This document shows positions 938 through 58,236 of a stretch of 64,000 bases of DNA, piece after piece. This stretch comes from a virus. Taxonomy: Duplodnaviria > Caudoviricetes. The notes beneath the pieces are model-generated. The model was not told the DNA's origin, ran no database searches, and saw only the letters and a program-made list of their open reading frames with translations. The position numbers and the translations under genes were made by a program. The DNA is taken from positions 96,001-160,000 of the IMG/VR virus record IMGVR_UViG_3300033121_001553; one strand, given 5' to 3'. The stretch's first letter is position 1. Each line of letters begins with the position of its first letter.

Positions 938-2830
938 TTACTTGGCGTAAACGATTACAGGTTCAGTCCTTACGCTACCGTTTCCCATGTACGAGTTACC
1001 GCAGCTCATCTGCTCAGTGCATACATGCTTGAAGCCAACATCAACTGCAACTGCATTGAATACATCAACGTATTTGTTTGAAACGTTAATAACAAACTTC
1101 GAGTTCTGCTTCAAACAAACGTATGCATGTTTTACTGTTGGTTTTACGTAACTGTCTACCCATTCCTGATATGTTTTGTATTCTTTCCATGCTTGTCCCG
1201 ACTCATCATAATATTTCTCAGTATCATAATATGGCGGCGATGTGAATACAAAGTCAACTGTGCATTCGTCAGGCGCCATCATCTCAGATCCGGCTGAGTT
1301 TACGATGATATCATAACCATACGATACGATATCTGACGCTAGGTTAGACAAGTCAGCTCTGGTACGTGATGATGGCTCGTTGCATATATAAGTTCCGCCG
1401 CTAAAGGACGATACAAAACCGAGCATTCTAGCACCGAACCCAGCAGAAGGATCCCAGACAGTTGGACACTCAGCTGTACAATATTTGCTGTAGATATACT
1501 TTGCGTAAGCGGGTCTAAACCAAGATACAGCTTTCTTTTGAACACGCAAACCGCGTCTAATAGATCTAAATGTTATGTCAATGCCTTGAGCTAGCCTTGT
1601 ACGTAGTACATTCGACAGTACGGCATCATTATAAAATGCGTTGCGTGGCCCATCGTTCGTATCCCAGTACGAACGAAATATCGACTGAAGATATGCTGAA
1701 CCTGCGTGCGAGTATTTTCTTGAGTTAGCAAGCTCAGCGATAGCATCAGCAAAACTTGAAGAACGAACTGGGTATATCCAACCGTAAGTCTCTGCGTATT
1801 GCTTGAGATAATTCAGCAGACATCTTACTGTCTGCTGCTGAACTTCGACAACTCTGCTGGCTCGCGTTATTATCGTTTCATCGTCAATAGACGGCAATCC
1901 ATTCTTGATAATCTTACCATCAATAACGGCTGTATGAGCACATGCTAGAAGTGATTCGTAGTCTCTGCATGAACACCAGTCTGCGTCTTCTGCTATTTTG
2001 ATGTATGAACTACGCGTTAGAACAGCTGAACGTAGTTTACGTAGATCTGAAGTCATTGTAGCGAGTTGTTGATCAGACCAGTCAGATGATCTGTCTAGTC
2101 CGTGCCAGTACGTTCCGTCAAATTCGACGTAGGTTCCACAGCTAAGTTGCATGTCGTAGCATGCCGTCATTCCATCTATTGATTTCCACACTTGCGTTTT
2201 TGCGTCATGATCAAATGTTTTTACGTGTTCAATGAACTTCTGCTCAGCAAAAGATGACTTCGATACTTCTCTCGTCATGTTCGATGACGAAATTTTTGAT
2301 CGCATCTCATCAGTAAATATTTTGCTCATAAGCTCAGAACGTTGCTCAGCCCATACACGTTTTCTAATACTGCTTAGTTTCTCATGCATTCCGTCAGCAT
2401 TCAACGAAGCAGATACTGCTGCTGCATGTCTACGGCTAACATCAGGATTACTAAATGCATCTTTTACGCTCAACGCTATTTTTCGTTTGATTTCATCACC
2501 ATGTTCAGCGTACGCAGCTCTGATCGCTGCATTTCTTTTTTTTACAGCATCTTGTGATGGCGAACATCTTGTTGCTGTTGACTTATTATTATGACCAGTT
2601 ATATATCTGTTGTAGCAGTACTTTGTTTTGTGCCACAATGTTAGCTGACCGCAGCCGCATAGACACTCTGGCTGACGTAGAGAAAAATATTTCTCAACAT
2701 ATCCCTTGATACCCTCAATGTCAGAATGACATTTTGAGATGTGAATACCAAGCTGCTTACGTGTCGCTATAACGGCATCGCATGCTGCACAACGATGCGT
2801 AAAGCTAATGTTACCGTAGCTATCTACCAT
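938..2830 (-). CDS. Zn-finger/homing-endonuclease-like domains fused to an amino (N4C/N6A) DNA methyltransferase
   Basis: CAAC..H..H and CLCGCG Zn motifs; YVEFDGTYWHG (Vsr/DUF559-like nuclease); C-terminal WDPSAGFGAR (SAM binding) and FTSPPYY (catalytic motif IV). Confidence 0.7.
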   Translation of the reverse strand: MVDSYGNISFTHRCAACDAVIATRKQLGIHISKCHSDIEGIKGYVEKYFSLRQPECLCGCGQLTLWHKTKYCYNRYITGHNNKSTATRCSPSQDAVKKRNAAIRAAYAEHGDEIKRKIALSVKDAFSNPDVSRRHAAAVSASLNADGMHEKLSSIRKRVWAEQRSELMSKIFTDEMRSKISSSNMTREVSKSSFAEQKFIEHVKTFDHDAKTQVWKSIDGMTACYDMQLSCGTYVEFDGTYWHGLDRSSDWSDQQLATMTSDLRKLRSAVLTRSSYIKIAEDADWCSCRDYESLLACAHTAVIDGKIIKNGLPSIDDETIITRASRVVEVQQQTVRCLLNYLKQYAETYGWIYPVRSSSFADAIAELANSRKYSHAGSAYLQSIFRSYWDTNDGPRNAFYNDAVLSNVLRTRLAQGIDITFRSIRRGLRVQKKAVSWFRPAYAKYIYSKYCTAECPTVWDPSAGFGARMLGFVSSFSGGTYICNEPSSRTRADLSNLASDIVSYGYDIIVNSAGSEMMAPDECTVDFVFTSPPYYDTEKYYDESGQAWKEYKTYQEWVDSYVKPTVKHAYVCLKQNSKFVINVSNKYVDVFNAVAVDVGFKHVCTEQMSCGNSYMGNGSVRTEPVIVYAK

Positions 2831-2871: not shown

Positions 2872-2901
2872 GAAAGGGAGGCGATAATTCGCCTCCCTTT
2901 C
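2872..2901. terminator. Intrinsic terminator hairpin after MCP
   Basis: GAAAGGGAGGCGA-TAAT-TCGCCTCCCTTTC, perfect 13-bp stem. Confidence 0.8.
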
Positions 2902-2923
2902 AGTCGATTACTTATCTAATCGA

Positions 2924-4813
2924 TAAGATGATGTTCATATTCAGAACCGTTACAGTTCCGAAGTAGTCAGAACGGATCATCTTCTTGCCGTACCGCGTCA
3001 TCACGCCCTTGGTTGGGGTGAAGTCCTGCGGATTGTAGATTGTCTGCGTCATGATGAGTGGCACATATGGCGCGTAGACATATCCCGTCTCAAGATAGTT
3101 ACCGCCCTTGTAGCCAACAAGGATGCGGTTCCTTGGGAAATAAGGATCCTTATAGACGGTAAATCTATTGTTCAGTGTACCGATTGCCTCTGCGCCCATC
3201 TGGAATGGAGAAGCTACCTGACCGTTGCCGTCAATCGACAGCTTGGCCTTGTACGCGATTGCGCTCTCGATAATCGTGCAAACATCTGGCGATGTCACGA
3301 TAAAGTTTGCGCTACCACGCAGGGTCTTACGGTGGATGGTGTTCGCAACGTCGTTGATTGTCTCAACAAGCGTCTGCGCCCACTCCATCGTGTTGCCCGT
3401 GAACTGTGGTCCGATCGACAAGCTCGTTGAGAGATCTCTCTGAGCACCGGTCAGCTTGTTCACGAACACGCCTGGAGCACGGCTCCAGTACAGGTTTGCA
3501 CCATTTGCCTGCGTTAGCAGATCCTGGAGGATCTCGCGGTCAATCTCAAGTGCGATCTGCTCCGACAGTACCTGCGTCAGCTCGACCTCTGCGTCGATGT
3601 TGTGGTACGCGTTCAGATCCTGCGCGAGCTCTGGAGACCAGCGAGCGCGCAGCTTGCGTGATGTTGCAGTGATTGCAATCGACTCAACCTTGATGTTGAC
3701 CTCTGCGATCACTGGGCTTGATGACGAGCCAAAGTCAGACTCGTAGCTTGGCAGCGTCAGAGTCGAACCTGTCGATGAATCGACCTGGAGCTTGTCGCTT
3801 ACGACACCAGACATCTTCATCGAGCCGCCGAGCACAGGTACTGAGCCTGCATTCGAGAGTCTCACGACGAACTGGATGTGGTCACCATTCAGCGCGTCTG
3901 GCGTAAACGTGGTGCCGTTGAAGTTACCACGCTTGTTCAGCTTGCGCAGGTTAAGCACACCAGTACCTGCCTGGAAGCTCTCGCCCCATGCCGTTGCACC
4001 GTTTGCCGTCGAGAACGCTGTGATTGCGAGCTGATCAACCTGGAGCAAGTCGACGTTTGCAATCGCGCTTGTGATCTGCGCAGTTGGAACGTGCACGAAG
4101 CACACGTCAAACGTACCAGCCTCGATACCAGCCTCAACGTCTGGATCGAAGTTGCAGAAGCGAGCGTTCGAGCCAGAGAAGTCAGTCGATGATGCGACTG
4201 TACCAGCTGATGTCCATGCGCCGTTCACTCCCGTGAATGCACCGACCTTCGTCTCAGCCGAAGCCGAAACAGAGTTGCTACCGCTGTGAACCTTCGAGAA
4301 GCCTGAGCCAACGAGGTCGTACATACCACCAGCCGCAAGCGAGCCCGACTGAACTCCCTTACCTGGCGGGTTGTTGTACAGCGACTGTCCAACGGTGTAA
4401 GTCTCATTTGCTGATGATGATGACAAGCTCACGCCTGCATCGCCACCAACGTTTGAGCCGTAGCCATAGTCGATGTAGAACACAAGACCAGATGGCAGCG
4501 ACATTGGCTGAACCGAAACGAGCTCGTTGGCAACGAGGCCACCGAAAACTCTACGTACGATTGGGAACGCAATGTTCGCGAAACCTGCGATCTGACCCGA
4601 CGTTGTAACGTTACCGCCACCTGTCGAGAGCGCGTTTGCCTCCTTTATGAGGCCTACTGCCTGGTTCTCAAGCAGACGGGCCATATGGCTACGGCGCTGT
4701 CCCTCGAGACCCTTGAGCAAGCCCGTCTTCGTCCACTTCTTGACGATGCGTGCTTCCTCTGCACTTCTATTGGGATCCTGGATCCCTTCCATAATATCCT
4801 GATATGTCAACAT
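2924..4813 (-). CDS. gp23: Major capsid protein (T4 gp23-like), 629 aa, TTA stop
   Basis: PIVRRVFGGLVANELVSVQPMSLPSGLVFY, RKLRARWSPELAQDLNAYH, EIDREI, YAPYVPL, GVMTRYG; own ATG 4813; ends ...NMNII-TTA. Confidence 0.93.
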
Positions 4814-4843
4814 TTTTACTTTCCAATCTCCTAAGTTGTGAGC

Positions 4844-6295
4844 TAACTTGATACCAGCCAAAATGCTCCAGCGATCTAGCTCAGCAGACTCTGACAGAGT
4901 CTCCTTCGATGCTGTTGCTGCTCCGCTTTTCACCGTGCGTGATGACGACCCGAGCAGCTGACCGCCGCTCTTGCCTTCTGTCATCGGCTTCTTGTCAGAC
5001 ATTGCCGTTGAAACTGCTGTCTCGTAAACGAGGCGTAGCTCCTTCAACGAGCTTGCTTCATTGACACGCTTGCACGCTGATGCTTTCTGTGCCTTGGTCA
5101 GATTGTCATTCGTGACGATCTTATTCGCGACCTTTGTCTTGGCTAGCATGAGATTCGTCTCACGCAGTTGATTGTAAAGTTGACGTACTTTACGCTCTGC
5201 GACGATAGAGGTATTAAGCTCTCTCATACGGCGTCGCGCCGGTGATGCTGACTCACGCATACGAAGCGCTCTGCGGAAGCGCGACTCGCGTGTTAGCATC
5301 TCGTCATCTTCTTCGGCCTCTTCAGCCATTGGCTCTTCGCCCTCAAGACCCTCAGTCGTAACGTCAGCGTCAAGCCATGGATCACCCATGTCTTCTCCAC
5401 CGCCGAAGTCATCAACTGGCATCTTCTTTGACTCTGCAATTCTTGCACGTACTCTCATAATCTCACGACGAAGCATACGCTCATCAACCTCAACGATTGG
5501 ATCAGCGTCTTTTCTGCCTCTGCTTTCGCCCTGCTGCGTTGGCTTCTTCTCTTCTTCGCCAGCAGCTGCACCGCCAAGAATCGAGTCTAGTTCTGCGTCT
5601 GATGTATCATCACCAGAGCCGTCGGAAGGAGCAGCAGCATCAACATCAGCCTGTTCCTCGTCGCCCTCAGGTGCGCCACCTTCTTCATCTGCAACAATTG
5701 ATACACCGAGCGCTCCAAGATCAAGATCATCTGGCAGCGCCTCGCCGCTAAGCTCGAGTGTAACTTTACCTTCCGACATACGCTTCTTCATTTTTATTTC
5801 CTCTGATGTTTCCTTATTCTTGATCTTTGAGAATGCATCTTCCAGCGCCTCTATTAGAGGCTTTTTCTCCGCTTCACTTGAAGAACTCTCTTTTACGCTT
5901 CTATACATATCGTCGAGACGAGCGACTGCACGCTCACTCATACGAAAAATTGCGCCTACACGCTTTATTTTTGCTGTACGCTTTACGAACTCATCAACAT
6001 TTTCGCAAAGCGACGTAACTTCTGCCTTAAGCTTGTTGAATGATTCATTCTTTGAATCATCATCCGTTAGCACATTTTCTTCGTCTTTATCATCTTCAGT
6101 TGACTCGACGAATTCTTTTTCCATATCATCGCCGCACTCAGTGACGTCAGCTTCATCCGACTCCAACAGAGTCTTTTCAATGAAACTACGTATAGCTGGC
6201 AACGCCGACTCTACGATCTCTTTCTTAGCGCTGTCTTCTGCAAGCTCACGCAATTTTTGCACGTCTGCAAGCGCTTCTTTATAAAGATTCGACAT
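4844..6295 (-). CDS. Prohead scaffolding protein, 483 aa, TTA stop
   Basis: Acidic coiled-coil between protease and MCP; LRETNLMLAK segment; ends RWSILAGIK-TTA, a typical scaffold C-terminus; fused to MCP in the ORF track only because TTA was read as Leu. Confidence 0.8.
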
Positions 6296-6299: not shown

Positions 6300-6914
6300 T
6301 AAGTCCTGATTTGTAACGTTGAATTTAACGTATTCTGTGCCGTCAGGCGTGCCTGGACGTGAGCCCTTCTTCAACGCGCGTGGAGGAGCGGCAATCGCGT
6401 CTGTGATCTGAGCGCTAGTGCTACTTGGGTTCGCAGTGTTCTCGGAACGTGGCTTTGCGTGCAGCTCATTACGTAGCTCTTCTGGAGTTGCGGGCTGCGA
6501 CAGTGGATCAACACCAACTGTTGGCGAACCAAGATTTGGTGACCACGCTGTTGATGTGCTACCGACGCCACCCGCTGCTTCATCAAGCGCATTAATGTCT
6601 GGAGCTGCGCCATAACCAGGCTTGTACTCAGACTCAAAGTTCCAGTAGGCCTTCGCATCATCAACATCGCCCTCTGTTACAAGTAGCTTGCTGATCATTG
6701 CATCGCCCTGACCGTTAATGTACTTTGGTGGCAGCTGACCTTTGTGAATAGGCGAAGCAGTGTATAGTCCTTTTAGTACATTTTCATTTGATAGTGACTT
6801 TGGTGGACCAGAGAATGACTCTTCGTACGCTTTAGTGTCAGGAGTCGTTACAGTCGAACCGTATCGATTCCCGTCTATCTGCGTTTTTGGATCTGGATCT
6901 ATTGGTTTTGGCAT
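6300..6914 (-). CDS. Hypothetical head-module protein, TTA stop
   Basis: AGGTGA SD; first in-frame TTA seen is 4 nt before the scaffold ATG. Confidence 0.65.
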
Positions 6915-7236: not shown

Positions 7237-7659
7237 TTAAACGCCTTTCTTGTCTGAAAATGCGAGTGCAGACCACAAATCTGCTTTTCCAGCGAGCATG
7301 TCTGCGAATGGATCATTTTCTTCAGATGCTTGTTGCTGCATACTTTCTTGGGCCATCGTTCTGTGCTGAACATTTGCCAGCGGTCCCTCAGCGTTTAGTT
7401 GTTCTTGCAACGTTGTTTTTGCAGTATCGGCCAATATGCTGCTAAGCGTCGGATCTTTTGTTAGCAAGCTTATTGCATTTTTTGCTGCGCTGTCTGCCTT
7501 CTGCTTCGCTTGCATTTGCTGCGCAGGTTGAACCTGTCTGTAACCTGTAGAAGGAACAACACGTTTTTTTACTTCTGTAACTGTTGAAACATCAGAACCA
7601 TCTAGCAAAATTTCTACAAGACATTCTTTGATCAGCTTCTTTAGTTCACCACGTGTCAT
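7237..7659 (-). CDS. Hypothetical head-module protein
   Basis: ELKKLIKECLVEIL N-terminus; ATGA coupling to the protease gene. Confidence 0.7.
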   Translation of the reverse strand: MTRGELKKLIKECLVEILLDGSDVSTVTEVKKRVVPSTGYRQVQPAQQMQAKQKADSAAKNAISLLTKDPTLSSILADTAKTTLQEQLNAEGPLANVQHRTMAQESMQQQASEENDPFADMLAGKADLWSALAFSDKKGV

Positions 7660-8282
7660 GCCGCTACTCCCTTGTGAGCGTTCAACGCATCTATAACAAA
7701 TCCAGCAGTTCGATAAATTCTATCAGACTTTGTAAATGTATTTCTCATCTCAACAAGATCAACGCGTTTACCTTCTTGCAAAAATGCTCCTGGCGTCGAC
7801 GGCTCAGATACGATATCCCAGCAAATGAGCTGGAAGTCATCTTGCACAACTTGCTTATCGCCTTCTTTTTTTGTCGTTCCAACACCACGAGATGATATAC
7901 CAAGTTTTACTCCACCAGCAAGCAGCTCTTGTAGTATTTTTCCGCTTGGTGTATTGAGTATCTCAACAACGCCGTGCACGATTCCGTTGTTAAACGTTGC
8001 TTCTCTGATTATGTGAGAAACGTTCTTTAGATTTACCACGCTCGACTCTGGATGATCGCATTCACCGCATGCTCGATTCTCATTAATAAATTTTTGATAG
8101 TTTCGTACTTCTCTTTCAAGTACAGAGTACGGATACACTCTACCATTTTGATTGAGCGTATCTGCCCGTTGCAGTATGCCACGTAGCAGTATCTTACCAC
8201 CCTTACTAATTGTTTCGTTAATCTCACTCGGAGTTAGCTCCAGAGGCTCCCAGCTTGTGATCAGTTTTTTATATTCGCTCAT
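7656..8282 (-). CDS. gp21: Prohead core protease (T4 gp21-like)
   Basis: NQNGRVYP, GECDHP, VSHII, LGISSRGVG, WDIVSEPSTPGA motifs. Confidence 0.92.
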   Translation of the reverse strand: MSEYKKLITSWEPLELTPSEINETISKGGKILLRGILQRADTLNQNGRVYPYSVLEREVRNYQKFINENRACGECDHPESSVVNLKNVSHIIREATFNNGIVHGVVEILNTPSGKILQELLAGGVKLGISSRGVGTTKKEGDKQVVQDDFQLICWDIVSEPSTPGAFLQEGKRVDLVEMRNTFTKSDRIYRTAGFVIDALNAHKGVAA

Positions 8283-8286
8283 GGTA

Positions 8287-9144
8287 TAACTTGCTCTCTA
8301 TCTCATTTATCAATTTTTCATAAAGCAAATGTTCGATCACCGCTGAGTCTTCTATCTCGTTGATCGTTTTGCCTCTCGCGAATGTTTCATTTTTTACGAT
8401 ATCAAGTCTTTCGTTTGTCATGATATCTCTGGGATTGTGAGATACGTAATTGTCTATCGCGTTGACAAGTCTATCTCGCGTTTCTGCGAAAAGTTTTTTT
8501 ACGTCTTCTTTGTTACCGTTCACGCAGCTCAAAGCATAAGTACGCACCAAACTCCGCTGTGCGTCTGTCAGTTCACCGTCGTATCGCTCGTTGATCTTGT
8601 TTGTCATTACCTTGATCAGCATACGCAGCGTGCCAGGCGACTCTGCTGGAATCGTTACTGTCTTTTCATCATCACTAGATCTCGTAAGGTGCTCACGCAG
8701 CGTATTCTCGTACTGCACAACCCTACCGAAGTCAGCTGCTGCTGGATTTCTCCAGTCATTTATAAGTGACTGTATCGTCGCATAAAGCTTGTAGTTCTCA
8801 AACTGCTGATCCCAGAAATATGGAAAATTTAGATGAGATATCGACTTAATAAGTGCTGTCTTCTCTTGCTCAAGCAGCGTAATATCATAGTTTGCAGATG
8901 CTTTTCGAGCTTCTGTTAGAACGGCTGCTGCAGCAACTTCTGACATTTTTTCATTCACGAGTGCCTTGAAGAGCCGAAATTCTCTGTAGATTTCAGTTCC
9001 TGGCTTGTAATGACGCTTCAAAATTTTAAGAGCACGACGTGCAACATCGTTGTTATTCTCAACGACAGACTTTGATATAACTCTTACCAGCAGCTCATAC
9101 GTTAGTCCAACGTTTCGCTTTTTATTGTGCTTTGCCATTCTCAT
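8287..9144 (-). CDS. Conserved head-module protein between portal and protease, TTA stop
   Basis: KHNKKRNVGLTYELLVR N-terminus; TTA followed by TACC-ATG of the protease gene. Confidence 0.75.
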
Positions 9145-9198
9145 TCCTTACCGCAAAAAATTCATTTTTGCCGTCGCTTATAACTATCAACATTAAAA

Positions 9199-11295
9199 TC
9201 ACTCGTCTGTAGCATCAACGTTTACGTCTTCAGACAGAAGAACATTTTCAGCGCTTGCATCAGCTGTTTCTATCTGCCAGTTATGACGCTCACAAAACTT
9301 TTGTAGCATCTTATACATATCGCTTCCAAACGCAGGCTTGTAATATCCCTCTGCAAGTGGTTTCTTATCAACACCTGCAGTCGAAAGACTATTGAGCCAT
9401 TTGATATCCGATGGATCATCTTCTGTTGCTGTTTTAACAGTTGGCGTTGGAGTTGTTATCTTTTTCTTGTACCGACGTCTTCTTATTGCATTTCCGCGCC
9501 ATTTTCTTTCAGCTTTTGACTGTGCTTCTGAGAATCTTCTTATTTTGCTTGACGCAGATATCGGTCTATCGAGTTCCTTAAGCTGAAATTGTGGTGGTGC
9601 GAAGTCATCAGCGTCAGTGAGTATATTTTCTTCGTCTTCATCATCTTCAACGCTTGCATTAACTTCTCCGCCTGGTTCTCCACCTGCGGGTGGCGCTCCA
9701 CCGCCACCCTCACCGCCAGCTGGTGGAGCGCCACCGCCAAGATCTCCGCCGCCAAGCCCACCTAGCTCTTCACCGCCACCGCCTCCCGTAGGATTCGTAA
9801 AGTCGAATCCACCACCGCCACCTCCGCCGCCGCCGCCCATACCGCCGTCAGCTGTTTCAAGTCCAACGCCGATTTTTTCAAGTTCTGCATCTCGTGCACG
9901 ATCTTTCTTTCTACCCTCTTCTATGGCTGCTATCTGATCTTCTGTTAGCGAAAGTATATTTGTTCTTACAAAGTCACGATCAAGCATGCCTTCTGGTGGG
10001 CTACCAGCTATCTCAAACTTTGCGCGCCATAGCTCAAGCTTCTGCTGCTCAGCAACTGTTGATGGATTCGACAAACGAAGAGCAAAGTTGATCAGATCTT
10101 CGCCAGAAAATCCATGCACGAATAGATGCATAATCGCAAGCTTGTTGAGCTCTGATAGTATCGTCTTCTGTATAACGTTTATTGTACGAGCAAATCTAAT
10201 GTCGACTTGCGCAAGCGTTGACTTGCTTCCAAGTAGCTCTTCGTATCCCAAGTAAGCGCTTGGTACACCCAACGCTGTTACAAGTTTTCTTCTTATGTAT
10301 TGAACGTCTTCGACGGCAGCGACATTTTGACCACCAGCAAGCGTGTCTATCTTCGTTGCAGACGTCGAACCTCTAACGGGCATGATGTAGTCTTCTTCTA
10401 CGCTCATAGCTCCATAACGCAAGTCGACTCTACCAGTCGCTCTATCAACGACAGATGCCGTACGAAAATTGTTCTTTACGCTTTCAATGTGTGCTGGTAT
10501 AGCTTCGTTTGGCATATTACCAACGTCGATGTAGATCACACGACGCTCGGGCGCTCGTACGATACGATAGACAAGCATCGCGTCTTCGATCAGTATGAGC
10601 TGTCTCCACACTCTTCTTGCTCCGTCTAGAACTGATGAACCGTACGGCAAGTAGTTATCATTTCCGAGCAGACGCATGTGAACAATCTCCCAGTTTTCTA
10701 GCACACGTGCACCAAGCGTATTCCATCTGAACCTGACGGCTGCTGGATCTGCTGGATCGAAATTTTCTTCGCGATCGATTTCATTAACTGGTATCGGTAT
10801 CAGGCCTTGCACACCGTACTCTGGTGATACGTCTACATACGCAAACCAGTCACCGTTCTTGCACAAGTTACGTGCCCAAGGCCTCATGTTGAACTCAACG
10901 TTCAATACGTTGTAAAAAAGATCTTCCAAGATCTCTTGTATCTTCGGATTATCGCTATAGATGTGAAATGATCGTCCTTTATCGTCCTGAGCGCATGACT
11001 CATCTGCGTACAAGTTAAGCGCTGTAGCGATCTCAGGCATCTGCTCCATCTCGATAAAGTCTTGGAATCTCATCAGTCGTTCTGATGAGTTGAACGAGTT
11101 GGCTGTTAGCGCAGTGTATGTTGGTGATATTGTTTTTGAAAACAACTGTGCTGCAGATGAATACACAGAATTGCCAGACGCTACAACCGTGTCTTGTGAC
11201 TTTACTTTTCTTCTTACGACAGGCCCGCTCTTAAAAAGACGTGTGAGTTTTTTGAAGAAACTGTCGTACTGATTATCCTGTGTTGCCATCAGCAT
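9199..11295 (-). CDS. gp20: Portal vertex protein (T4 gp20-like) with Gly-rich C-terminal tail
   Basis: PEIATALNLYADE, LIEDAMLVYRIVRAPERRVIYIDVGNMP, EEDYIMPVRG, IDTLAGG, DIRFARTI. Confidence 0.93.
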   Translation of the reverse strand: MLMATQDNQYDSFFKKLTRLFKSGPVVRRKVKSQDTVVASGNSVYSSAAQLFSKTISPTYTALTANSFNSSERLMRFQDFIEMEQMPEIATALNLYADESCAQDDKGRSFHIYSDNPKIQEILEDLFYNVLNVEFNMRPWARNLCKNGDWFAYVDVSPEYGVQGLIPIPVNEIDREENFDPADPAAVRFRWNTLGARVLENWEIVHMRLLGNDNYLPYGSSVLDGARRVWRQLILIEDAMLVYRIVRAPERRVIYIDVGNMPNEAIPAHIESVKNNFRTASVVDRATGRVDLRYGAMSVEEDYIMPVRGSTSATKIDTLAGGQNVAAVEDVQYIRRKLVTALGVPSAYLGYEELLGSKSTLAQVDIRFARTINVIQKTILSELNKLAIMHLFVHGFSGEDLINFALRLSNPSTVAEQQKLELWRAKFEIAGSPPEGMLDRDFVRTNILSLTEDQIAAIEEGRKKDRARDAELEKIGVGLETADGGMGGGGGGGGGGFDFTNPTGGGGGEELGGLGGGDLGGGAPPAGGEGGGGAPPAGGEPGGEVNASVEDDEDEENILTDADDFAPPQFQLKELDRPISASSKIRRFSEAQSKAERKWRGNAIRRRRYKKKITTPTPTVKTATEDDPSDIKWLNSLSTAGVDKKPLAEGYYKPAFGSDMYKMLQKFCERHNWQIETADASAENVLLSEDVNVDATDE

Positions 11296-11785: not shown

Positions 11786-13381
11786 TCATCTCAATAGCAA
11801 CCACGAGAAATTTGGATCCATTATCGCTTTCGATGTTCGAAGCAGCATTTCTCTTCTACGCGCAAGCACTGGATCATCTACTGACTTTAGTCTGTATCCA
11901 ACGACCATTTCGTCTACAGAAGGCAACGTTTTACGTTCGCATCTCAGCAGCTTGTTGAGTTCGTAGTCTTCTGGCTTTTTCTCATACGACATAAGATTTA
12001 GCTCGTAATACACATACGACATAACTGCCAAAGACATCACAAGATCGTCTGTAAATCCTTTAAGCGCTAGAGCTTTCTGACCTTGCCATACAAAACTTCG
12101 TATTTCATGCAAAAATCTTGATGAACGTATAATCATACGTTTCGTTCTTAGCAACTCTTCGAGACGCGTTAGCATGATAACACGTGTTTTTGCAGATGTT
12201 GTTAGACCCGGCAGCGCTTCGTACTCTGTAACATCAACATCAGACAACGATGCAACGCCAACGTCTTCGTACCACAAAGCCGGATATTTCATATCACGTA
12301 GTTTAATACACGTTGTGTAACCAAATCCGTTGTTTTCTGGTGCAACTACGGCATTGTTATACTTTTTGCCAGTGTCTGCTATCATATCTGCAAGAATGTC
12401 TGGCGTTACCTTTCCCATGAATTCGACTACAACTTCGCCTGTTCGTTGATTCATGACGTGAAATGTTGAAAAGTCACCTGCATCGCCTCTCGAAACATCT
12501 GCACTAAGCATGTACTGCTCATTTTCCGACGGTTCTTCCCAAATCCATACGCTAGAGTCAGGTCCTGTTTTTCTAAGTGGCTCTGAGATACAGCTAGTGA
12601 TAAATGAGATTGTGTCATATTGAAGGTATGTCTCACCGCTTGATATGAAGTCGCACATTAGCTCTTGCGCTATTTGACGCTTCGTCATATTTCTGGTTTC
12701 ATTTTCAAACCATGCAAGATCATGTTCAGGATGCACGTCCCACTTGAGCTCTATCGCGTTGAACTCATTCGACTTCGCAAGCGCTCCTGCGTACAGGTCG
12801 TAGTACTGCCCTCCAACACCGTTTGGAGTCGAAATTAGAATTGCTTCACCACCGGTAGACAACGTTGGATAAAGACCAGTCCAAAGAACATCAAAGTCTC
12901 TAATGTGCGCTGCTTCATCAACTATCAGCAGAGAAAGCGCCTCAGAACGTCCAGCGTCTTCAGACGTCGGTACAGCATGAACCTTGCTGCCGTTGTCGAA
13001 TGTTATAGTCTGCTTTGTAATGTTTGCTTTCGTTATCTTTATCCAGTCGGGTAGATTATCGTACATAACCTTTACCTTCTTGATAAAGTTGATCGCAGTC
13101 GGGAGCTTAGTTGCAATGATCAGTATGTTTTTATCACGTCTAAAAATCGCTAGCCACAAAGCATAAGCAGCTGTGACCGTAGAAAGTCCCAGCTGCCTTG
13201 CTTTCGCTATGATGTTGAAACGATGTTTTCTAAACGATTCAATTACGTCATTTTGAAATTTATACGTTTTGAAATTCAACAATCCACGCTTTGGGTGCTG
13301 AATTTTGCAATACGAATTCATAAAGTACGTTGGATCTTTTCCACAACGTACTATCTCTCTATAAATTTTTTCTTTATCCAT
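11786..13381 (-). CDS. gp17: Terminase large subunit (T4 gp17-like)
   Basis: KARQLGLST Walker A, LLIVDEAAHI Walker B, ISTPNG motif III, nuclease ADVSRGDAGDFS and DDLVMSLA. Confidence 0.95.
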   Translation of the reverse strand: MDKEKIYREIVRCGKDPTYFMNSYCKIQHPKRGLLNFKTYKFQNDVIESFRKHRFNIIAKARQLGLSTVTAAYALWLAIFRRDKNILIIATKLPTAINFIKKVKVMYDNLPDWIKITKANITKQTITFDNGSKVHAVPTSEDAGRSEALSLLIVDEAAHIRDFDVLWTGLYPTLSTGGEAILISTPNGVGGQYYDLYAGALAKSNEFNAIELKWDVHPEHDLAWFENETRNMTKRQIAQELMCDFISSGETYLQYDTISFITSCISEPLRKTGPDSSVWIWEEPSENEQYMLSADVSRGDAGDFSTFHVMNQRTGEVVVEFMGKVTPDILADMIADTGKKYNNAVVAPENNGFGYTTCIKLRDMKYPALWYEDVGVASLSDVDVTEYEALPGLTTSAKTRVIMLTRLEELLRTKRMIIRSSRFLHEIRSFVWQGQKALALKGFTDDLVMSLAVMSYVYYELNLMSYEKKPEDYELNKLLRCERKTLPSVDEMVVGYRLKSVDDPVLARRREMLLRTSKAIMDPNFSWLLLR

Positions 13382-41482: not shown

Positions 41483-43375
41483 ATGAATTCTGAAATTGTA
41501 TTCGTTGCTGACGTTTTCGCAAACGAATTTATCGGTGGAGCTGAGTTGACAACGCAAGCGTTGATCGACAGCTGTAAATTTACTTACACACGCGTACACG
41601 CTAAGGATGTAACAGCTCAGCTAATAGAGCTAAATAAGCACAAATATTGGATTTTTGGGAACTGCTCATCACTTAATTTTGACTTGTTTCCATTGATTAT
41701 CTCGAATCTGAGATATTCAGTTCTCGAGTACGACTACAAATATTGCAAGTACAGAAGTCCAGAAAAACATCAAGCGACAGAAGGACGTTACTGTAACTGT
41801 CATGACACGATTCACGGGCAAACAATTGCAGCATTTTTTTACGCTGCAAAGTCAACATTTTGGATGAGTGAAGCGCAGCAAGACAGGTATACAACGAAAT
41901 TTCCATTTCTAATGGAAAAGAAAAATATCGTACTATCGTCAGTATTCGATGATGAGTTTTTCGCTGCTGTTAAAATTCTAAATGAAAGATACAAAGATCA
42001 CAATAGAACCAAATGGATCGTGCTAGGCTCAGATTCCTGGGTGAAGGGGTATTCAGCAGCAAAGCAGTATTGCGATTCAAGGTCACTAGATTACGAAGTC
42101 ATATCTGGAGTAGCTCCAGGAACGATGCTAGATATTCTTGCGCGTGCAAAAGGGCTCGTGTACCTACCAAATGGCCCAGATACATGTCCAAGACTCGTAA
42201 TAGAAGCAAAATTGCTTGGATGCGAGCTAGTGCTAAATGACTACGTTCAGCATCGATACGAGAGTTGGTTCGATACAGACGATAAGCTAGCAATTACAGA
42301 GTATCTGTACTCAGCAAGAGATACTTTCTGGAAGCAGATCGAAACTGACATGAGCTGGCAGCCAAAACTCAGTGGTTACACCACGACGTACAACTGCATC
42401 AAACAGAATTACCCATTTGTTCAAAGCATCGACTCGATGCTAGGATTCTGTGACGAGATCTGCGTCGTCGATGGAGGATCGACGGATGGTACGTACGAGA
42501 CGTTGCTCAGGCTAGCTGCGGAGACAGTCGTACAGGATCCTAAGACAGGTGAGCCTGTCCTCAAGATCAGGGTCAAACAAATCGAACGTGACTGGAAATC
42601 ACCAGGATTTTCAGTTTTCGACGGTATGCAGAAGGCAGAAGCACGCGCAATGTGCAAAAATGAATTTCTATGGCAGCAAGATGTCGATGAAATCGTTCAT
42701 GAAGATGACTACGATAAGATCAAGAAGCTAGCAGCATCAATGAATGCTGGACTAGAGCTTGTTTCGTTGCCTGTTATTGAATACTGGGGCAGCGCTGATA
42801 AAGTCCGTATCGATGTTACTCCGTGGAAATGGCGTCTCAGTAGAAATAATCGTAACATAACGCATGGCGCACCTGCAAATTTGCGTGTTTATGGAAAAGA
42901 TGGCAAGCTTGAGAAATTTTTGCCCGGAACAGACGGCTGCGATATGATCTACGCTGATACAGGTCAGCCGGTGCCGCATGTAACATTTTACGATGCAAAA
43001 GCAAACTCTTTGCGTAGTCATGCATTGTCTGGTAATGGAATGGCGTTGAAGCAGTATGAAGAATGGTTCAACAGCGCAGTAAATGAACTTCCATGTGTAT
43101 TTCACTACAGCTGGTTTGATATCAAAAGAAAAATAAAGTTGTACAGAGACTACTGGCTAGATCACTGGTCAGATATGTACGAACGTCGCAAGGGCGATAA
43201 TCTTTTCTTTGATAAACCATGGAATGAAGTAACAGACGAAGAGATACACGAACTTGCAATTAAGCTTGCAACTGAAACTGGTGGGCATGTGTTTCATTCT
43301 CGTTGGAGTGGTAAACGTACTCCTCACATTAAAGTGAACAGAACGCAGCCAGCGATTATGTTGTCAAGTAAATGA
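41483..43375 (+). CDS. Two-domain glycosyltransferase (GT-B-like + GT2)
   Basis: DTCPRLVIEAKLLGC; EICVVDGGSTDGT; QQDVDE. Confidence 0.8.
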   Translation: MNSEIVFVADVFANEFIGGAELTTQALIDSCKFTYTRVHAKDVTAQLIELNKHKYWIFGNCSSLNFDLFPLIISNLRYSVLEYDYKYCKYRSPEKHQATEGRYCNCHDTIHGQTIAAFFYAAKSTFWMSEAQQDRYTTKFPFLMEKKNIVLSSVFDDEFFAAVKILNERYKDHNRTKWIVLGSDSWVKGYSAAKQYCDSRSLDYEVISGVAPGTMLDILARAKGLVYLPNGPDTCPRLVIEAKLLGCELVLNDYVQHRYESWFDTDDKLAITEYLYSARDTFWKQIETDMSWQPKLSGYTTTYNCIKQNYPFVQSIDSMLGFCDEICVVDGGSTDGTYETLLRLAAETVVQDPKTGEPVLKIRVKQIERDWKSPGFSVFDGMQKAEARAMCKNEFLWQQDVDEIVHEDDYDKIKKLAASMNAGLELVSLPVIEYWGSADKVRIDVTPWKWRLSRNNRNITHGAPANLRVYGKDGKLEKFLPGTDGCDMIYADTGQPVPHVTFYDAKANSLRSHALSGNGMALKQYEEWFNSAVNELPCVFHYSWFDIKRKIKLYRDYWLDHWSDMYERRKGDNLFFDKPWNEVTDEEIHELAIKLATETGGHVFHSRWSGKRTPHIKVNRTQPAIMLSSK

Positions 43376-44274
43376 TAACGATTGCAATAGTCTCGCACAA
43401 TAGAGCAAAATACTTGCTAGCATTGCTTCGCAGCCTTGATCCAAAGTATCTCGTTGATCAAGGCTGCGAAGTGATCGTGGTTGATAACGCGTCAGTCGAA
43501 AAAGAGATCGAAGCAGCACTTTCATTCGAATGTGTGAATGTGATCAGGAGAACAGACACCCCAGACTGGATCAACGATGAGTACATTGCAAAAAATATTG
43601 CGATTAAGGCTGCAAAGCATAAAACAATTTTGTTTTTGCAAGATGACATGCAACTGTTGTTTGAGCCAAGAGCGCTCCTGTTCGCTGCGCAGCAATTTGA
43701 ACAGTTGAACGTGAATTCTGTTTCGCTTACTGCTGCGAGAGGTACGACAACAGACGCGATGCTAGACTATAACGACGTAAAGAAGTACAAGAATTTCGTT
43801 ACATATCATATAGCAGACGATCATATATGCACAACAGGATTCTTCAGAAAAGAGCTATTTGACAAAGTTGGGTTGTATGTTGAAGATCATGCAACGTCTG
43901 CAACTAACTGGGGGAAGTCAGAAGATGAGTTTAATTTCAGAGCTCATCAGATACTGGGAACTGGTCAGTCGTATCATGCTAAAGTCCCGCTGTTCGCATC
44001 CGTATGGAACGATCCACGTGGCGGTTACGCTATTATGAGAGATGGTAAGCGTCATGGACACTACACCGATCCAGTAAGCGAAACAGGTCTTTACTACAAG
44101 CAGCACACCATAAATAACTGGATTTTCATGAATGCGTACACAGGTCAAAAACGTTACACATTTACTAGTGTTGCATCTCCGCTTGGTTGGACATACAAAA
44201 CTGACTCTAGCGGAGAACAGTACAAATTTCCACAAAAACAGCTTATAGTAGAAGGCCCGTCAACGCTACCATGA
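43372..44274 (+). CDS. Glycosyltransferase family 2
   Basis: IAIVSHNR, VIVVDNAS, LFLQDD, WGKSED. Confidence 0.8.
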   Translation: MITIAIVSHNRAKYLLALLRSLDPKYLVDQGCEVIVVDNASVEKEIEAALSFECVNVIRRTDTPDWINDEYIAKNIAIKAAKHKTILFLQDDMQLLFEPRALLFAAQQFEQLNVNSVSLTAARGTTTDAMLDYNDVKKYKNFVTYHIADDHICTTGFFRKELFDKVGLYVEDHATSATNWGKSEDEFNFRAHQILGTGQSYHAKVPLFASVWNDPRGGYAIMRDGKRHGHYTDPVSETGLYYKQHTINNWIFMNAYTGQKRYTFTSVASPLGWTYKTDSSGEQYKFPQKQLIVEGPSTLP

Positions 44275-45026
44275 AAAATAATAGATTTGTTTTTATTGCA
44301 CCAATGTATAATGCGTCGAAAACGCTTCCACGTATGCTTCATTCGATATGTGGACAGTCGTACAGCAACTGGAAGCTTTTTCTTATTGATGACGTATCAA
44401 ACGAAAACGAATGTCGAAAAATAGAAGCGATAATTGACTCTTTTGAAGATACGCTTATTACATGTAATGAAGAAATAAAAATTAACGTATACTGGAACGG
44501 TAAAAATGGACGTGGTAAGCAATGGGAAGTTTCAAATGTGCTGTACGGCGTATCGATGTGCGAAGACGATGACATCGTATGTAGAATAGACGCAGATGAC
44601 TGGCTAACAGATCTGGACGCTCTTCACATCATAAATTACTTCTACAATGAGCTATCATGTGACACGTTGTGGACATCACATCGTTGGTCATACACAGATA
44701 AAAATATTTCTGCCCCAATGCCAGATACAGCCGATCCATACAGCTATCCATGGGTAACAAGTCACCTAAAAACGTTCAGAAAGCATCTTCTGAATAGCGT
44801 AAATGACGTTAATTTTCGTGGACAAGACGGTAAATACATAAAAAGAGCAGGTGATCAAGCGATTTATCTGCCAGCATTGAAAAATTCAAAAAAACGTGTA
44901 TATTTGCCAAGAGTAATGTATCATTACACAATAGATGAACAAAATGGTGCTGTTTATCAAACAGATGACGCAAAATTTCAAAAAAGCGAAGCTGACTTCA
45001 TAAGAGCCAGGGGATACGTCAAATGA
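44271..45026 (+). CDS. Glycosyltransferase family 2
   Basis: IAPMYNA, LIDDVS, RIDADDWL. Confidence 0.85.
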   Translation: MKNNRFVFIAPMYNASKTLPRMLHSICGQSYSNWKLFLIDDVSNENECRKIEAIIDSFEDTLITCNEEIKINVYWNGKNGRGKQWEVSNVLYGVSMCEDDDIVCRIDADDWLTDLDALHIINYFYNELSCDTLWTSHRWSYTDKNISAPMPDTADPYSYPWVTSHLKTFRKHLLNSVNDVNFRGQDGKYIKRAGDQAIYLPALKNSKKRVYLPRVMYHYTIDEQNGAVYQTDDAKFQKSEADFIRARGYVK

Positions 45027-45943
45027 AAATTTACGTTCTTGCGCCAAAAGAAGATTGGATCTGTGATAGATTCGTAAAAGAGTGGTCGCAAGATAATACT
45101 GATATCACAACCGACAACATTCATGATGCAGATATCATATGGCTGCTTGCTGACTGGTGCTGGAATCAAATCAGTCCACACATACTTAGATCGAAAATCG
45201 TCGTAGCGACAGTTCATCATCTTGTTCCATCAAAGATGACATATCGAGCACGTAAAGAATTTGCTGAACGTGATGAATACATTGATCTATACCACGTACC
45301 GAATGTTCATACTAGACTTCAAATACTTGAGCTTACAGAAAAATCGAAATGCACAATTCCATTTTGGGCAAATCAAAAAATCTGGAAACGCACTAACGAT
45401 AAAAAGACACTTAGAAAAAAGTATGGAATTGATGAAGATGCGTACATAGTCGGTTCATTTCAACGAGATACAGAAGGTAGCGATCTCGTAACTCCAAAAT
45501 ATGAAAAAGGTCCGGACCTGTTGGCTGACTATCTTGAGAAGATAAAGTCAGATAATCTTCATGTGCTTCTTAGCGGTTGGAGAAGGCAATACATCATAAA
45601 GCGCATCGAAGATGCGGGAATAAACTACACATATATTCAGCTTCCACAGCAGCATGTGATCAATGAACTTTATCAAACGCTTGACCTGTATCCTGTCACT
45701 GCAAGATACGAAGGTGGACCACAGTCACTTGTAGAATGCGGAATGCTTAATGTTCCTGTCGTATCAAGAGACGTAGGCATTGCAAGCGTTGTGCTGCCAA
45801 AAGAAGCAATTAACGATGATGTTTCGCTTGCTACACCAGCCATACCAAATGTAGCTGAGCTTTTGCTTCCGCTTGGATACGACAAATTCAGAGAGATGTT
45901 TTACAATCTTTACTCAAGTACTACACGATATGAAAAGATTTTA
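45023..45943 (+). CDS. Glycosyltransferase family 4-like, TTA stop
   Basis: KGPD, ARYEGGPQSLVECG, VVSRDVG; TTA removes 144 nt of overlap with the next gene. Confidence 0.8.
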
Positions 45944-46172
45944 TCTTCAAAGAGACGCAGATCACTCAGGCGTATCTGGCACCGGGAAAGTAGCAGAAGG
46001 CTGTCAGTTCGATACAAAGTGGTGTGCGTTGATATGGCTTACAGAGAAGTCATCCATGTGTTTCTACCCAGACATAGAAACGCTTGAGCATATTCATGGT
46101 CACAGCGGAAAAACAAAGATTGTCTGGATAGATGATGAATCTTCTAACGTGGTGATTCAAAATGATAATTTA
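45930..46172 (+). CDS. Small conserved phage protein, TTA stop
   Basis: FYLQRDADHSGVSGTGKVAEG...HIHGHSGKTKIVW. Confidence 0.65.
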
Positions 46173-47109
46173 CGTGAATAGAGAAACGATAAGAAAACCG
46201 TGGGGCGGCGGTGCACATTACGTTAATGCGATATTCGACAACTGTAATGAAAACGTTGTTATCGACGATATAAGAACATTTCACTCTTACTCGTCTCTTC
46301 AAGCTCGTGGTGATGCTGTGATGCTGTGCTGTGGACTCGATGGAGATGATAAGCATCCAGTCGTAGAAGAGATGATAAACTACAGAAATTATGTTCGTGA
46401 TAATTCTAGCACTTCGATAAAATTCTGTATCAGAGTTAATGAATGTGATGCACGAAAAGGTACGGTTGGCGTTGACCAGCGTGTTATGAAAGCGATAGCA
46501 GAAGCTGATGGTGTAATTTTCGTATCAGAATGGATGCGCGACTACTACACGTCACTCGGCGCTGCTCCAAAGCAATATGCTGTTATTTACAATGGTGTAG
46601 ACAACGAAATTTATCATAAAAATGATAAGCCCAAGTCTTCAAACATTAGCGTTGTAACTCATCATTGGTCGAATAACCAAATGAAAGGATTTGATATTTA
46701 CGACGAACTTGACAGAGCACTTGGTGGTGAGCTTGGCAAAAAAATTGACTTTACGTACGTTGGACGTGACAGAGGAACATTCAAAAATACAAAAGTTGTT
46801 CAACCGCTGTACGGAGATGCACTCGGTAATGAACTACGCAAGCACAACGTATACATCTCAGCGAGCAGATTCGATCCGGGACCAAATCATATCATCGAAG
46901 CGCTCGCTTGCTTCGATAATGTGTACGTCCACGCTGACGGTGGTGGATGCGTTGAATTTGCGGGAAATGATGCTACGTACAGAACGTTTGAAGAACTAGT
47001 TAACATGATACTGTCAAGAAAGTCAAATGCTAACGCAAAAAGTTTTGGTAGCTGGGAACAATGCGCAAAACAAACCTTCGAATTTCTTAAATTGGTATCT
47101 ACGAAATGA
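46162..47109 (+). CDS. Glycosyltransferase family 4-like
   Basis: PWGGG, VIYNGVD, KGFD, SRFDPGPNHIIEALA. Confidence 0.8.
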   Translation: MIIYVNRETIRKPWGGGAHYVNAIFDNCNENVVIDDIRTFHSYSSLQARGDAVMLCCGLDGDDKHPVVEEMINYRNYVRDNSSTSIKFCIRVNECDARKGTVGVDQRVMKAIAEADGVIFVSEWMRDYYTSLGAAPKQYAVIYNGVDNEIYHKNDKPKSSNISVVTHHWSNNQMKGFDIYDELDRALGGELGKKIDFTYVGRDRGTFKNTKVVQPLYGDALGNELRKHNVYISASRFDPGPNHIIEALACFDNVYVHADGGGCVEFAGNDATYRTFEELVNMILSRKSNANAKSFGSWEQCAKQTFEFLKLVSTK

Positions 47110-47540
47110 AAACAGCAAAAGTACCAGTTACAGACTACTACGGTTATCCACCAAGCAAGTTCGAAGGTCTTGTTGAAGATCTGATAGCGAAGAGGCTACA
47201 AGAGCTTGTCGAAGATGGAGTTACATTCGATGTAAACACGTCAGCCGTAATATCAAATCGTGAGTTGTGCAGCAGGGTTTATCTGATCATTCATGGCGTT
47301 ATAGAAGAATGCCTGCAGATCTGTAAGCTTGAGTCAACACGTGAATGCGTAGGTTACATCGTTCAGTCGTATTACAGCTCAATGCAAATAAACGATGCAT
47401 TTTATTTTGATAAATCAATAATAGAGCAACGTATTACAGTTGAAGATGTTCAAACTGCAGAGCTTAAAAAATTCGGTCCACTGTTTAGAGATGCTGACTT
47501 TGGAGTCGACATGATAAATGAGCTCAAGAGACGTAACTGA
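47106..47540 (+). CDS. Hypothetical protein
   Basis: ATGA-coupled 144-aa ORF. Confidence 0.6.
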   Translation: MKTAKVPVTDYYGYPPSKFEGLVEDLIAKRLQELVEDGVTFDVNTSAVISNRELCSRVYLIIHGVIEECLQICKLESTRECVGYIVQSYYSSMQINDAFYFDKSIIEQRITVEDVQTAELKKFGPLFRDADFGVDMINELKRRN

Positions 47541-48283: not shown

Positions 48284-48309
48284 TTGATCACCTTACCTTT
48301 AAGTATTCA

Positions 48310-49254: not shown

Positions 49255-49279
49255 ACAAAACTTATATATTGTGATAATA

Positions 49280-55055: not shown

Positions 55056-55075
55056 AAGTGATGCAAGAGGTAAAA

Positions 55076-57508: not shown

Positions 57509-57620
57509 TTTAGCTACCTCTTATATTTATGGTCATGCATTAGGTTCATTCAAGAGGCCCTCCAAATTTTTGCGCCGTAAAGTTGTGTATAACTTGTTGT
57601 TGTGAATTTTGGAGGATAAG

Positions 57621-58225: not shown

Positions 58226-58236
58226 TGAGTCTGATA

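Follow-up and report, generated by a model that had tools for sequence, protein, structure and literature searches.

The 64,000-nt stretch of viral DNA analyzed here (the window), part of the 186.8-kb record of an uncultured T4-like phage, contains at positions 2924-6295 what appears to be a single fused gene for a scaffold-like protein and the major capsid protein (MCP). We propose that this is very probably a pair of separately translated head genes, whose apparent fusion results from UUA, conventionally a leucine codon, acting as a stop. Where the genes end, how TTA behaves across the genome, and that it stands in for the canonical stops of relatives are established by the comparisons presented below; the separate translation of the two genes is inferred, there being no protein, ribosome-profiling or transcript data.

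Gene boundaries at the scaffold-capsid junction

Under NCBI table 11 the locus reads as one ORF of 1,127 aa on the minus strand (window 2912..6295), whereas ORF calling under table 23, in which UUA is a stop, splits it into genes of 483 and 629 aa. The minus-strand junction between the two reads AAG TTA GCT CAC AAC TTA GGA GAT TGG AAA GTA AAA ATG, with the first TTA at 4846..4844, a second, in-frame TTA at 4834..4832 and the MCP ATG at 4813..4811. At its 3' end the MCP gene reads AAC ATC ATC TTA (2926..2924), followed by TCG ATT AGA TAA, with the table-11 stop at 2914..2912. The features of the locus are:

6300..6914, minus strand: upstream gene of unknown function, 204 aa, ending on TTA at 6300-6302
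4844..6295, minus strand: scaffold-position gene, 483 aa plus TTA terminator
4844..4846, minus strand: TTA closing the scaffold-position gene, right after ...RWSILAGIK; stops of relatives align here, and it is kept in the related contig L100
4814..4843, minus strand: intergenic spacer of 30 nt, with the second in-frame TTA (4832-4834), AGGAGA (4827-4832) and GGAAAG (4819-4824)
2924..4813, minus strand: MCP gene of the Gp23 type (PF07068, PHROG 138), 629 aa plus TTA terminator
2924..2926, minus strand: TTA closing the MCP gene after ...VLNMNII; canonical stops here in about 75 relatives, TTA in the related contig L002
2912..2923, minus strand: the four codons TCG ATT AGA TAA, added to the MCP by table 11 and read here as 3' untranslated
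2872..2901, minus strand: 13-bp hairpin downstream of the MCP gene, terminator-like, with only a weak U-tract

The TTA of the 204-aa gene lies 4 nt ahead of the scaffold ATG, and table 11 prolongs that gene by seven codons into the scaffold gene. The head module as a whole runs in the order terminase, portal, S77 protease, small genes, 483-aa protein and MCP.

The C-terminal 629 residues of the table-11 product constitute a Gp23-type MCP, matching Pfam PF07068 (267.7 bits, cut-off 24.4, E 2.8e-79) and PHROG 138, the major head protein, with an E-value of 1.8e-76. Relatives align to it from residue 1-2 through 629. What is to be expected of a stand-alone MCP gene, namely a length of about 520-660 aa, a start of its own and head-module neighbors (here protease, portal and terminase), is met.

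The 483-aa protein (53 kDa, pI 4.7) is 38% charged, with 23% D+E, 16% K+R and a GRAVY of -0.75, and its AlphaFold model (pTM 0.26) consists of helices only, with disordered acidic linkers between them. It satisfies two tests for a gp22-type scaffold: that of position, as its gene lies between the S77 prohead protease, which it follows as gp22 does in T4, and the MCP; and that of composition, being acidic, highly charged, elongated and helical without a globular domain, the fold being that of the model. Its homologues likewise sit directly upstream of the MCP in relatives. Similarity to T4 gp22 was not detected when an 11-sequence alignment was compared with gp22 using hhalign (probability 0.7%, E 0.08), nor did searches of Pfam and PHROGs return a match. 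As there is no gp22, Pfam or PHROG match, we term it the scaffold-position protein rather than a member of the gp22 family; its scaffold role is inferred from position, composition and fold type, without support from sequence similarity. Among GenBank phages its sole match is in Flavobacterium phage immuto, where the homologue bears the apparently spurious name 'DNA polymerase phi-like'.

The ends of these genes in relatives coincide with the TTAs. Scaffold homologues from 56 relatives end in RW[AS]xLAG[IL]K followed by 0-6 residues and a stop (TAA in 29, TGA in 23 and TAG in 4); in 14 of them the canonical stop falls exactly at the aligned position of the scaffold TTA, and in the remaining 42 within 1-6 residues of it. 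In all relatives in which the MCP frame was checked (n=39), it is shut by a canonical stop lying 3-57 codons ahead of the match, and none is fused. Downstream, the MCPs of about 75 relatives end in ...[LM]D[ML]N[IV]I with a canonical stop at the position of the MCP's TTA. The spacers preceding the MCP ATG in relatives measure 17-71 nt and contain AGGAG. The MCP lies in the frame of the scaffold gene in about 15 of the 56, roughly the third that chance predicts, and a run of ten codons free of stops is nothing out of the ordinary. In immuto, which shares the gene order of the head module, the two are distinct CDSs separated by 28 nt. TTA likewise occurs at the ends of neighboring genes where their homologues stop. 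As for fusions elsewhere, in a collection of 5.8 billion proteins the only MCP relative exceeding 1,100 aa was the cluster of this phage's own mis-called ORF, which we regard as weak evidence.

Two further contigs bear directly on the junction. L100, an independent contig with 94.3% nucleotide identity across 9.3 kb, has both junction TTAs, which are therefore not a sequencing error; it retains all four TTA ends of this module, and the one indel whose length is not divisible by three falls between genes. L002, whose MCP is 68% identical, is sister to the phage of this record in a quick MCP tree (SH-aLRT 98). Its scaffold and MCP genes both end on TTA, with 36 further table-11 codons after the latter, and its spacer has a TAA four codons past the scaffold TTA; hence, no fusion is possible there. 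Between orthologues of this phage and L002, TTA is exchanged with TAA or TGA at the aligned C-termini of four pairs, and genes have kept their TTA ends in lineages 0.3-0.4 substitutions per site apart.

A preliminary description, made from sequence alone, had claimed that the fusion resolves into two genes at a TTA, that the 30-nt linker is intergenic with two in-frame TTAs, and that the MCP ends NII-TTA. All three claims held: the termini of relatives agree with the split, as do L100 and L002, and the MCP end corresponds residue for residue to the C-termini of the approximately 75 relatives. The check which it suggested, a comparison with scaffold/MCP pairs of relatives, found no fusion among 39 MCP frames and 56 scaffold ends. 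Its claim of a Shine-Dalgarno-like sequence in the linker held only in part: AGGAGA is present but lies 14 nt from the ATG, as against about 6-9 nt in relatives, and the motif is AAGAGA in L100. Strong motifs of this kind are rare in the genome generally. The claim of a terminator after the MCP gene also held in part, as the hairpin present there is strong but has no classic U-tract: it begins 22 nt past the TTA in a region folding at -31 kcal/mol (z -6.3), and a scan for consensus terminators did not call it, no clean U-tract being present.

Distribution of TTA across the record

The distribution of TTA departs from chance far beyond what random variation allows. Only 95 of the 58,635 codons in the 186.8-kb record are in-frame TTAs (~1.6 per 1,000), as against 1,440 and 665 TTAs in the two remaining frames; within the window TTA accounts for 29 of some 20,400 codons. 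Its frequency in relatives with a GC content of 42-44% is 10-24 per 1,000, and TTG stands at 15 per 1,000 codons in this record. The last ten codons of ORFs hold 38% of the in-frame TTAs, compared to at most 7% for any other codon. The TTAs lying deep in the 'interior' of table-11 ORFs are gene junctions in every case, with new starts 2-63 nt later; at one of these a CN_hydrolase domain finishes three residues earlier, and at another both a metallophosphoesterase and its best phage match come to an end.

With TTA counted among the stops, 62 of the 191 ORFs close on it, the remainder using TGA (90), TAA (34) and TAG (5), and the overlap between neighbors falls from 2,966 to 1,185 nt. A backup stop within three codons follows 0.42 of TTA ends, much as for TGA (0.43) and TAA (0.47), without enrichment, and the base following TTA ends shows no distinct bias, being A or G in only 42%. 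Thus, two expectations of a table-23-like code are fulfilled, as UUA is absent from gene interiors despite a composition favoring it and is found where homologues stop.

Three other accounts of this pattern were considered and rejected. Plain codon bias does not reproduce it, given that the rare TTAs of the TTA-poor relatives L025 and L064 (TTA being a sense codon in L025) lie within genes rather than at their ends. Neither is TAG a compensating sense codon read by the phage tRNA(CUA), for TAG never occurs inside genes when allowed as sense. Slippage by +1 at TTA, bringing an overlapping TAG or TAA into frame, in analogy to what has been proposed for human mitochondrial AGA/AGG, was rejected as a general mechanism because it fits the scaffold end (AAG TTA G) and not the MCP end (TTA T), A or G following at too few ends overall.

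Proposed mechanism and competing explanations

In our proposal, ribosomes would end the scaffold-position protein at the UUA at 4846..4844, MCP synthesis would be initiated independently at the ATG at 4813 and end at the UUA at 2926..2924, ahead of the strong hairpin, and the 30-nt spacer would by chance keep the MCP in frame without a canonical stop. The bolder reading, which we consider likely, is that a T4-like phage lineage comprising the phage of this record, L100 and L002, and presumably its bacterial host too, has in UUA a genuine fourth stop codon, recognized by an RF2-type reader with a relaxed second base. The usage of TGA, TTA, TAA and TAG as stops fits an RF2-type reader of U-[A/G/U]-A. 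Nevertheless, that the reader is an RF2-type class-I release factor with relaxed second-base reading is inferred solely by analogy with organelles, no such factor having been identified. RF-1 (PF00472) had no match in the record, which CheckV places at ~52% completeness, and PCRF (PF03462) only a sub-threshold match of 31 columns inside the portal gene; neither domain was found in five related fragments, all records being partial. There is no leucine tRNA among the 12 tRNA genes of the partial record, the tRNA set of the host being unknown, and neither a tRNA nor a rescue factor to which termination at UUA could be ascribed was detected in it. Since no gene class retains internal TTAs and the record lacks a release-factor domain, the UUA-reading factor is more likely to be encoded by the host than by the phage. 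A search for the host via the MCP in GTDB genomes recovered only standard-code phage contigs in unrelated MAGs, for example of Phycisphaerae, Halobacteriovorax and Methylococcaceae. A gene for a PTH2-like protein adjoins that for tRNA(CUA) at 57.9-58.3 kb of the window.

The closest competitor is that UUA is a hungry codon, unassigned and without a tRNA, at which ribosomes stall until rescued by ArfA/ArfB, by tmRNA, or by peptidyl-tRNA drop-off and then Pth; this would leave the gene boundaries as they are, with release being slow and not effected by RF1/RF2. The absence of a release factor gene from the (partial) record, the PTH2-like gene beside tRNA(CUA) and the lack of a distinct base preference after TTA ends could be cited in its favor. 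However, TTA closes a third of the genes, those of the two most abundant head proteins among them, and exchanges freely with TAA and TGA between orthologues; moreover, lineages retain their TTA ends, there is no surplus of backup stops, and tmRNA rescue would mark the products for degradation. We hence consider this explanation unlikely. The preliminary description had argued for efficient termination rather than stalling; this remains a reasonable inference only, drawn from the 62 of 191 genes, scaffold and MCP among them, that end on TTA and from the TTA/TAA/TGA exchanges, there being no protein-level data.

A genuine scaffold-MCP polyprotein comparable to that of HK97, in which TTA is a rare leucine codon and the prohead protease later separates the parts, could draw on the frame being open for 1,127 codons under table 11, on the S77 prohead protease encoded nearby, and on [LI]xE motifs in the scaffold and MCP parts alike. 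It is all but ruled out by the absence of any fused relative (0 of 56, so that the conservation expected of an HK97-type fusion is not met), the exact alignment of scaffold and MCP termini with the TTAs, the TAA that precludes fusion in L002, the absence of TTA otherwise from gene interiors genome-wide, and the likeness of the spacer to the untranslated spacers of relatives, including TTAGGAG. A related possibility is a leaky UUA, with a few ribosomes passing both TTAs to yield a minor fusion with some role in head assembly, for which the in-frame layout without a canonical stop leaves room. Yet the MCP is in frame in relatives at a near-chance rate, the spacer of the sister L002 has a canonical stop, RNA folding of the junction spacer reveals no unusual or read-through-promoting structure (z +0.39), and read-through would be rare with two TTAs placed four codons apart, rendering such a role very improbable. 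A minor fusion product as such cannot be excluded under our reading of UUA as a stop, since, with the MCP in frame and no canonical stop in the spacer, read-through of UUA would fuse the two.

Relation to known systems

The same change, with UUA a stop and UUG and CUN still leucine, defines NCBI table 23 of Thraustochytrium and other labyrinthulean mitochondria. However, table 23 is an organelle code with a dedicated mtRF2a bearing a Ser204 substitution (PMC12574857), whereas the phage relies on a bacterial system, its factor has not been identified, and it makes next to no use of TAG. UUA and UCA are stops in plastids of pedinophyte-derived dinoflagellates, presented as the first sense-to-stop change outside mitochondria, and UUR is a stop in the mitochondria of Marsupiomonadales and Pseudoscourfieldia; altered RF2 has been tied to UUA and altered RF1 to UUR, and organelles with UUA as a stop carry the RF2 Ser204 substitution (PMC12574857). 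These cases rest on the same two criteria as ours, absence within genes and presence where homologues end, but are organellar, unlike the phage. Our search of the literature found no phage or bacterial case of UUA as a stop, the published ones being confined to mitochondria and plastids. If true, the reassignment would be the first of sense to stop outside organelles, with the implication that translation machinery of the bacterial type is able to treat a sense codon as a stop.

The head genes 22 and 23 of T4 have the same order (portal, small core proteins, S77 protease, scaffold, MCP) and are separate, with an 18-nt spacer; the 483-aa protein differs from gp22 in having nearly twice its length and no detectable similarity to it, and in this phage both genes end on TTA. 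The HK97-type capsid with its fused scaffold (delta) domain is what the locus resembles under table 11, though here it is the code table that creates the fusion. Recoded phages (code 15, TAG to Gln; code 4, TGA to Trp) are also mis-called under table 11, and this phage too has a tRNA(CUA); but in them stops have become sense codons and genes look fragmented, whereas here a sense codon has become a stop and genes look fused or extended. Coding-density surveys have not looked for sense-to-stop changes (PMC13037316): alternative-code phages are sought only as stop-to-sense cases, and the opposite class would be missed. In consequence of the code, standard pipelines mis-annotate two key head proteins as one of 1,127 aa, and about a third of the phage's genes are similarly extended or fused under table 11. 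The junction is the cleanest single illustration of the change of UUA from leucine to stop and, the scaffold-position protein and MCP being very abundant, the case most easily tested, by looking for chains of 53 kDa and 67 kDa, the latter possibly shortened by cleavage after LIKE58, as against a 121-kDa fusion. A large public protein collection already contains exactly this mis-called fusion.

Organization of the scaffold/MCP locus

The source record is a linear IMG/VR virus entry of 186,819 bp (GC 43%; CheckV-estimated completeness ~52%), of which the window represents bases 96,001-160,000. Under the standard bacterial code (table 11), a single ORF of 1,127 aa is called at 2912..6295 on the minus strand; its last 629 residues constitute a Gp23-type major capsid protein (MCP; Pfam PF07068, E 2.8e-79; PHROG 138), and its first 483 residues match no family in Pfam or PHROG. 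In all likelihood this single ORF arises merely from applying table 11, and the locus, with comparable confidence, is an ordinary T4-type pair of scaffold and MCP genes.

Head genes and junction sites in the window
11786-13381, minus: large terminase
9199-11295, minus: T4-type portal
between portal and protease, minus: 285-aa gene
7656-8282, minus: S77 prohead protease
between protease and 483-aa protein, minus: three small genes
end of the head-gene series, minus: 483-aa protein, then MCP
4846..4844, minus: first TTA
4834..4832, minus: second in-frame TTA
4813..4811, minus: MCP ATG
2926..2924, minus: TTA terminating the MCP
2914..2912, minus: table-11 TAA closing the ORF

This order is that of T4 (gp20, gp67, gp68, gp21, gp22, gp23). 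The 483-aa protein (53 kDa, pI 4.7, 38% charged residues) is modeled as long helices and disordered acidic linkers with nothing else; hence, from its position and character, including this predicted structure, we infer that it is the scaffold. As similarity to T4 gp22 is undetectable (hhalign probability 0.7%), we term it the scaffold-position protein rather than a member of the gp22 family. Immediately 3' of the MCP lies a 630-aa gene (938-2830, minus), roughly where T4 has its vertex protein gene, with a short N6_N4 DNA-methylase-like stretch near the C-terminus (residues 525-600, E 2e-6).

At the junction, ...GGT ATC AAG TTA is followed by the spacer GCT CAC AAC TTA GGA GAT TGG AAA GTA AAA and then by ATG. 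UUA closes the scaffold gene, a conserved ATG of its own opens the MCP gene, and UUA closes that gene too. The preliminary description had resolved the apparent fusion into two genes split at a TTA: its coordinates were right, the TTA at the junction of a table-11 ORF is confirmed, and the two-gene interpretation is supported. Its appeal to a Shine-Dalgarno (SD) sequence is only weakly supportive, because the AGGAGA lies 14 nt from the ATG and strong SD motifs are rare genome-wide (GGAG within 25 nt 5' of the start in just 16 of 185 ATG starts in the whole record); the start is better supported by the conservation of the MCP N-terminus. Leaders throughout the record are A-rich, and this, with the rarity of SD motifs, might be informative on the host's mode of initiation. 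The junction RNA shows no unusual structure (z +0.39). A 13-bp hairpin (z -6.3) lies 22 nt past the MCP TTA; it lacks a clean U-tract and was not called a terminator by a consensus scan.

The gene pair in related phages

A search of IMG/VR with the MCP recovered 80 loci at 53-68% identity. In all 39 loci checked, a canonical stop closes the MCP frame 3-57 codons 5' of the match, and therefore none of them is fused. Homologues of the 483-aa protein lie directly upstream of the MCP in related loci; in the 56 whose alignment extends to the protein's final residues, they terminate in RW[AS]xLAG[IL]K plus 0-6 residues and a canonical stop (29 TAA, 23 TGA, 4 TAG), 14 of them stopping right at the K, the position of the TTA in this phage. 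The relatives' spacer before the MCP ATG measures 17-71 nt, with AGGAG, and the MCP is in frame with the scaffold in ~15 of the 56, as expected by chance; thus, the in-frame layout in this phage is an accident. At the other end, the MCPs of ~75 relatives have their stop directly after ...[LM]D[ML]N[IV]I, matching ...LNMNII-TTA here. The cultured, standard-code Flavobacterium phage immuto encodes the homologues as two CDSs 28 nt apart, and 18 nt separate the T4 gp22 and gp23 genes. Among proteins >1,100 aa in a large collection, the sole MCP relative is the mis-called ORF itself, whose cluster holds 6 sequences from 9 contigs. Fusion in standard-code relatives would have refuted the two-gene reading, and none was found.

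An independent copy is furnished by L100, a 9.3-kb contig from a separate sample spanning terminase to MCP at 94.3% identity to the window: all four TTA-ended genes, the scaffold included, keep their TTA, every within-gene indel is a multiple of three, and the spacer has AAGAGA in place of AGGAGA. In L002, a phage with 68% MCP identity and a GC of 48%, the scaffold ends ...LAGLPAK-TTA and the MCP ...DMNII-TTA; the scaffold TTA is followed 4 codons on by a canonical TAA, and hence no scaffold-MCP fusion appears. L002 has an apparent fusion of its own (7938-10850, plus), of 668 aa and 298 aa with TTA between, the parts matching window 938-2830 and 45023-45943. In four orthologue pairs from L002 and this phage, the C-termini align but one member ends on TTA and the other on TAA or TGA; UUA is interchangeable with the canonical stops. 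A quick maximum-likelihood tree of the MCP places the two TTA-ending phages as sisters (SH-aLRT 98) nested in standard-code phages; their terminal branches measure 0.3-0.4 substitutions per site. The tree implies that TTA-ending is old and stable in the lineage. Three further IMG/VR contigs (L101, L102 and L103; terminase ~50% identical, GC 50-51%) have just 2-5 in-frame TTAs per 3,000-5,000 codons each, and are possible additional TTA-stop phages outside the immediate clade.

TTA across the genome

The 56 long ORFs of the window contain 29 in-frame TTAs in ~20,400 codons, as against 10-24 per 1,000 codons in relatives of similar GC, and nearly all fall in the final 1-7 codons, in tails that run into the following gene, or in 5' extensions of doubtful validity. 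Across the record, TTA occurs 95 times in frame versus 1,440 and 665 times in the remaining frames; the final ten codons hold 38% of the in-frame TTAs, and no more than 7% of any other codon. Wherever a TTA lies deep in an ORF "interior", two genes meet there, as at scaffold/MCP. Two such table-11 "fusions" are the minus-strand loci G000:C1:43243-44724 and G000:C1:59267-60526 of the whole record (handles L096 and L095). The former joins a CN_hydrolase, whose domain stops 3 residues short of the first TTA, to a 223-aa ORF beginning 63 nt on; the latter joins a metallophosphoesterase, which finishes at the TTA together with its best phage match, to a 140-aa ORF. With TTA counted as a stop, 191 ORFs end in 62 TTA, 90 TGA, 34 TAA and 5 TAG, and overlap between neighboring genes falls from 2,966 to 1,185 nt. 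In the merely TTA-poor relative L025, the few TTAs are dispersed within genes, with none at gene ends; therefore codon bias alone does not produce the picture in this phage.

The stop signal, not the locus, is the extraordinary feature, and the scaffold/MCP pair is the easiest place for an experimental test. In a full-text literature search, UUA (or UUR, UCA) stops turned up in mitochondria and plastids only, and none in a phage or bacterium; the codes tested in a 2026 survey of 10,754 jumbo phages were limited to 15, 90 and 91 (PMC13037316).

Possible readers of UUA and accessory genes

We infer that a class-I release factor would perform release at UUA. The stops that this phage uses (UGA, UUA and UAA, with hardly any UAG) are those that an RF2-type factor with relaxed second-base reading would serve; by analogy, a model for it may be found in labyrinthulean mitochondria and certain plastids, where UUA=stop accompanies an RF2 Ser204 substitution (PMC12574857). 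That the phage itself encodes the factor is unlikely, as RF-1 or PCRF domains were detected neither in the ~52% complete record nor in five related fragments, all partial. This, with the absence of an encoded Leu tRNA from the incomplete record and of any gene class retaining internal TTA, favors a host-encoded factor, an inference toward which we lean only modestly. Stalling of the ribosome at UUA followed by rescue is a still more remote prospect. A +1 slip at TTA onto TAG or TAA was considered and rejected as not general.

A PTH2-like ORF (PF01981, E 2.4e-12) is followed directly by a tRNA with anticodon CUA (58237-58308), the two together spanning 57884-58308 on the plus strand; a role for the PTH2-like gene in UUA termination has not been shown. 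In this genome with tRNA(CUA), TAG is the stop of ~5 of 191 ORFs and is never found within a gene. The record ends in an array of 11 tRNA genes (G000:C1:179890-186019; Ser x2, Val, Gly, His, Glu x2, Lys, Gln, Met x2), none for Leu, which possibly runs past the contig end. Elsewhere in the window, a plus-strand run of sugar-modification genes (41483-61247) includes several GT2 and GT1/GT4 glycosyltransferases, a SAM methyltransferase, a radical SAM enzyme and a carbamoyltransferase (50394-52055, plus), and might constitute a cluster for glycan or cell-surface modification.
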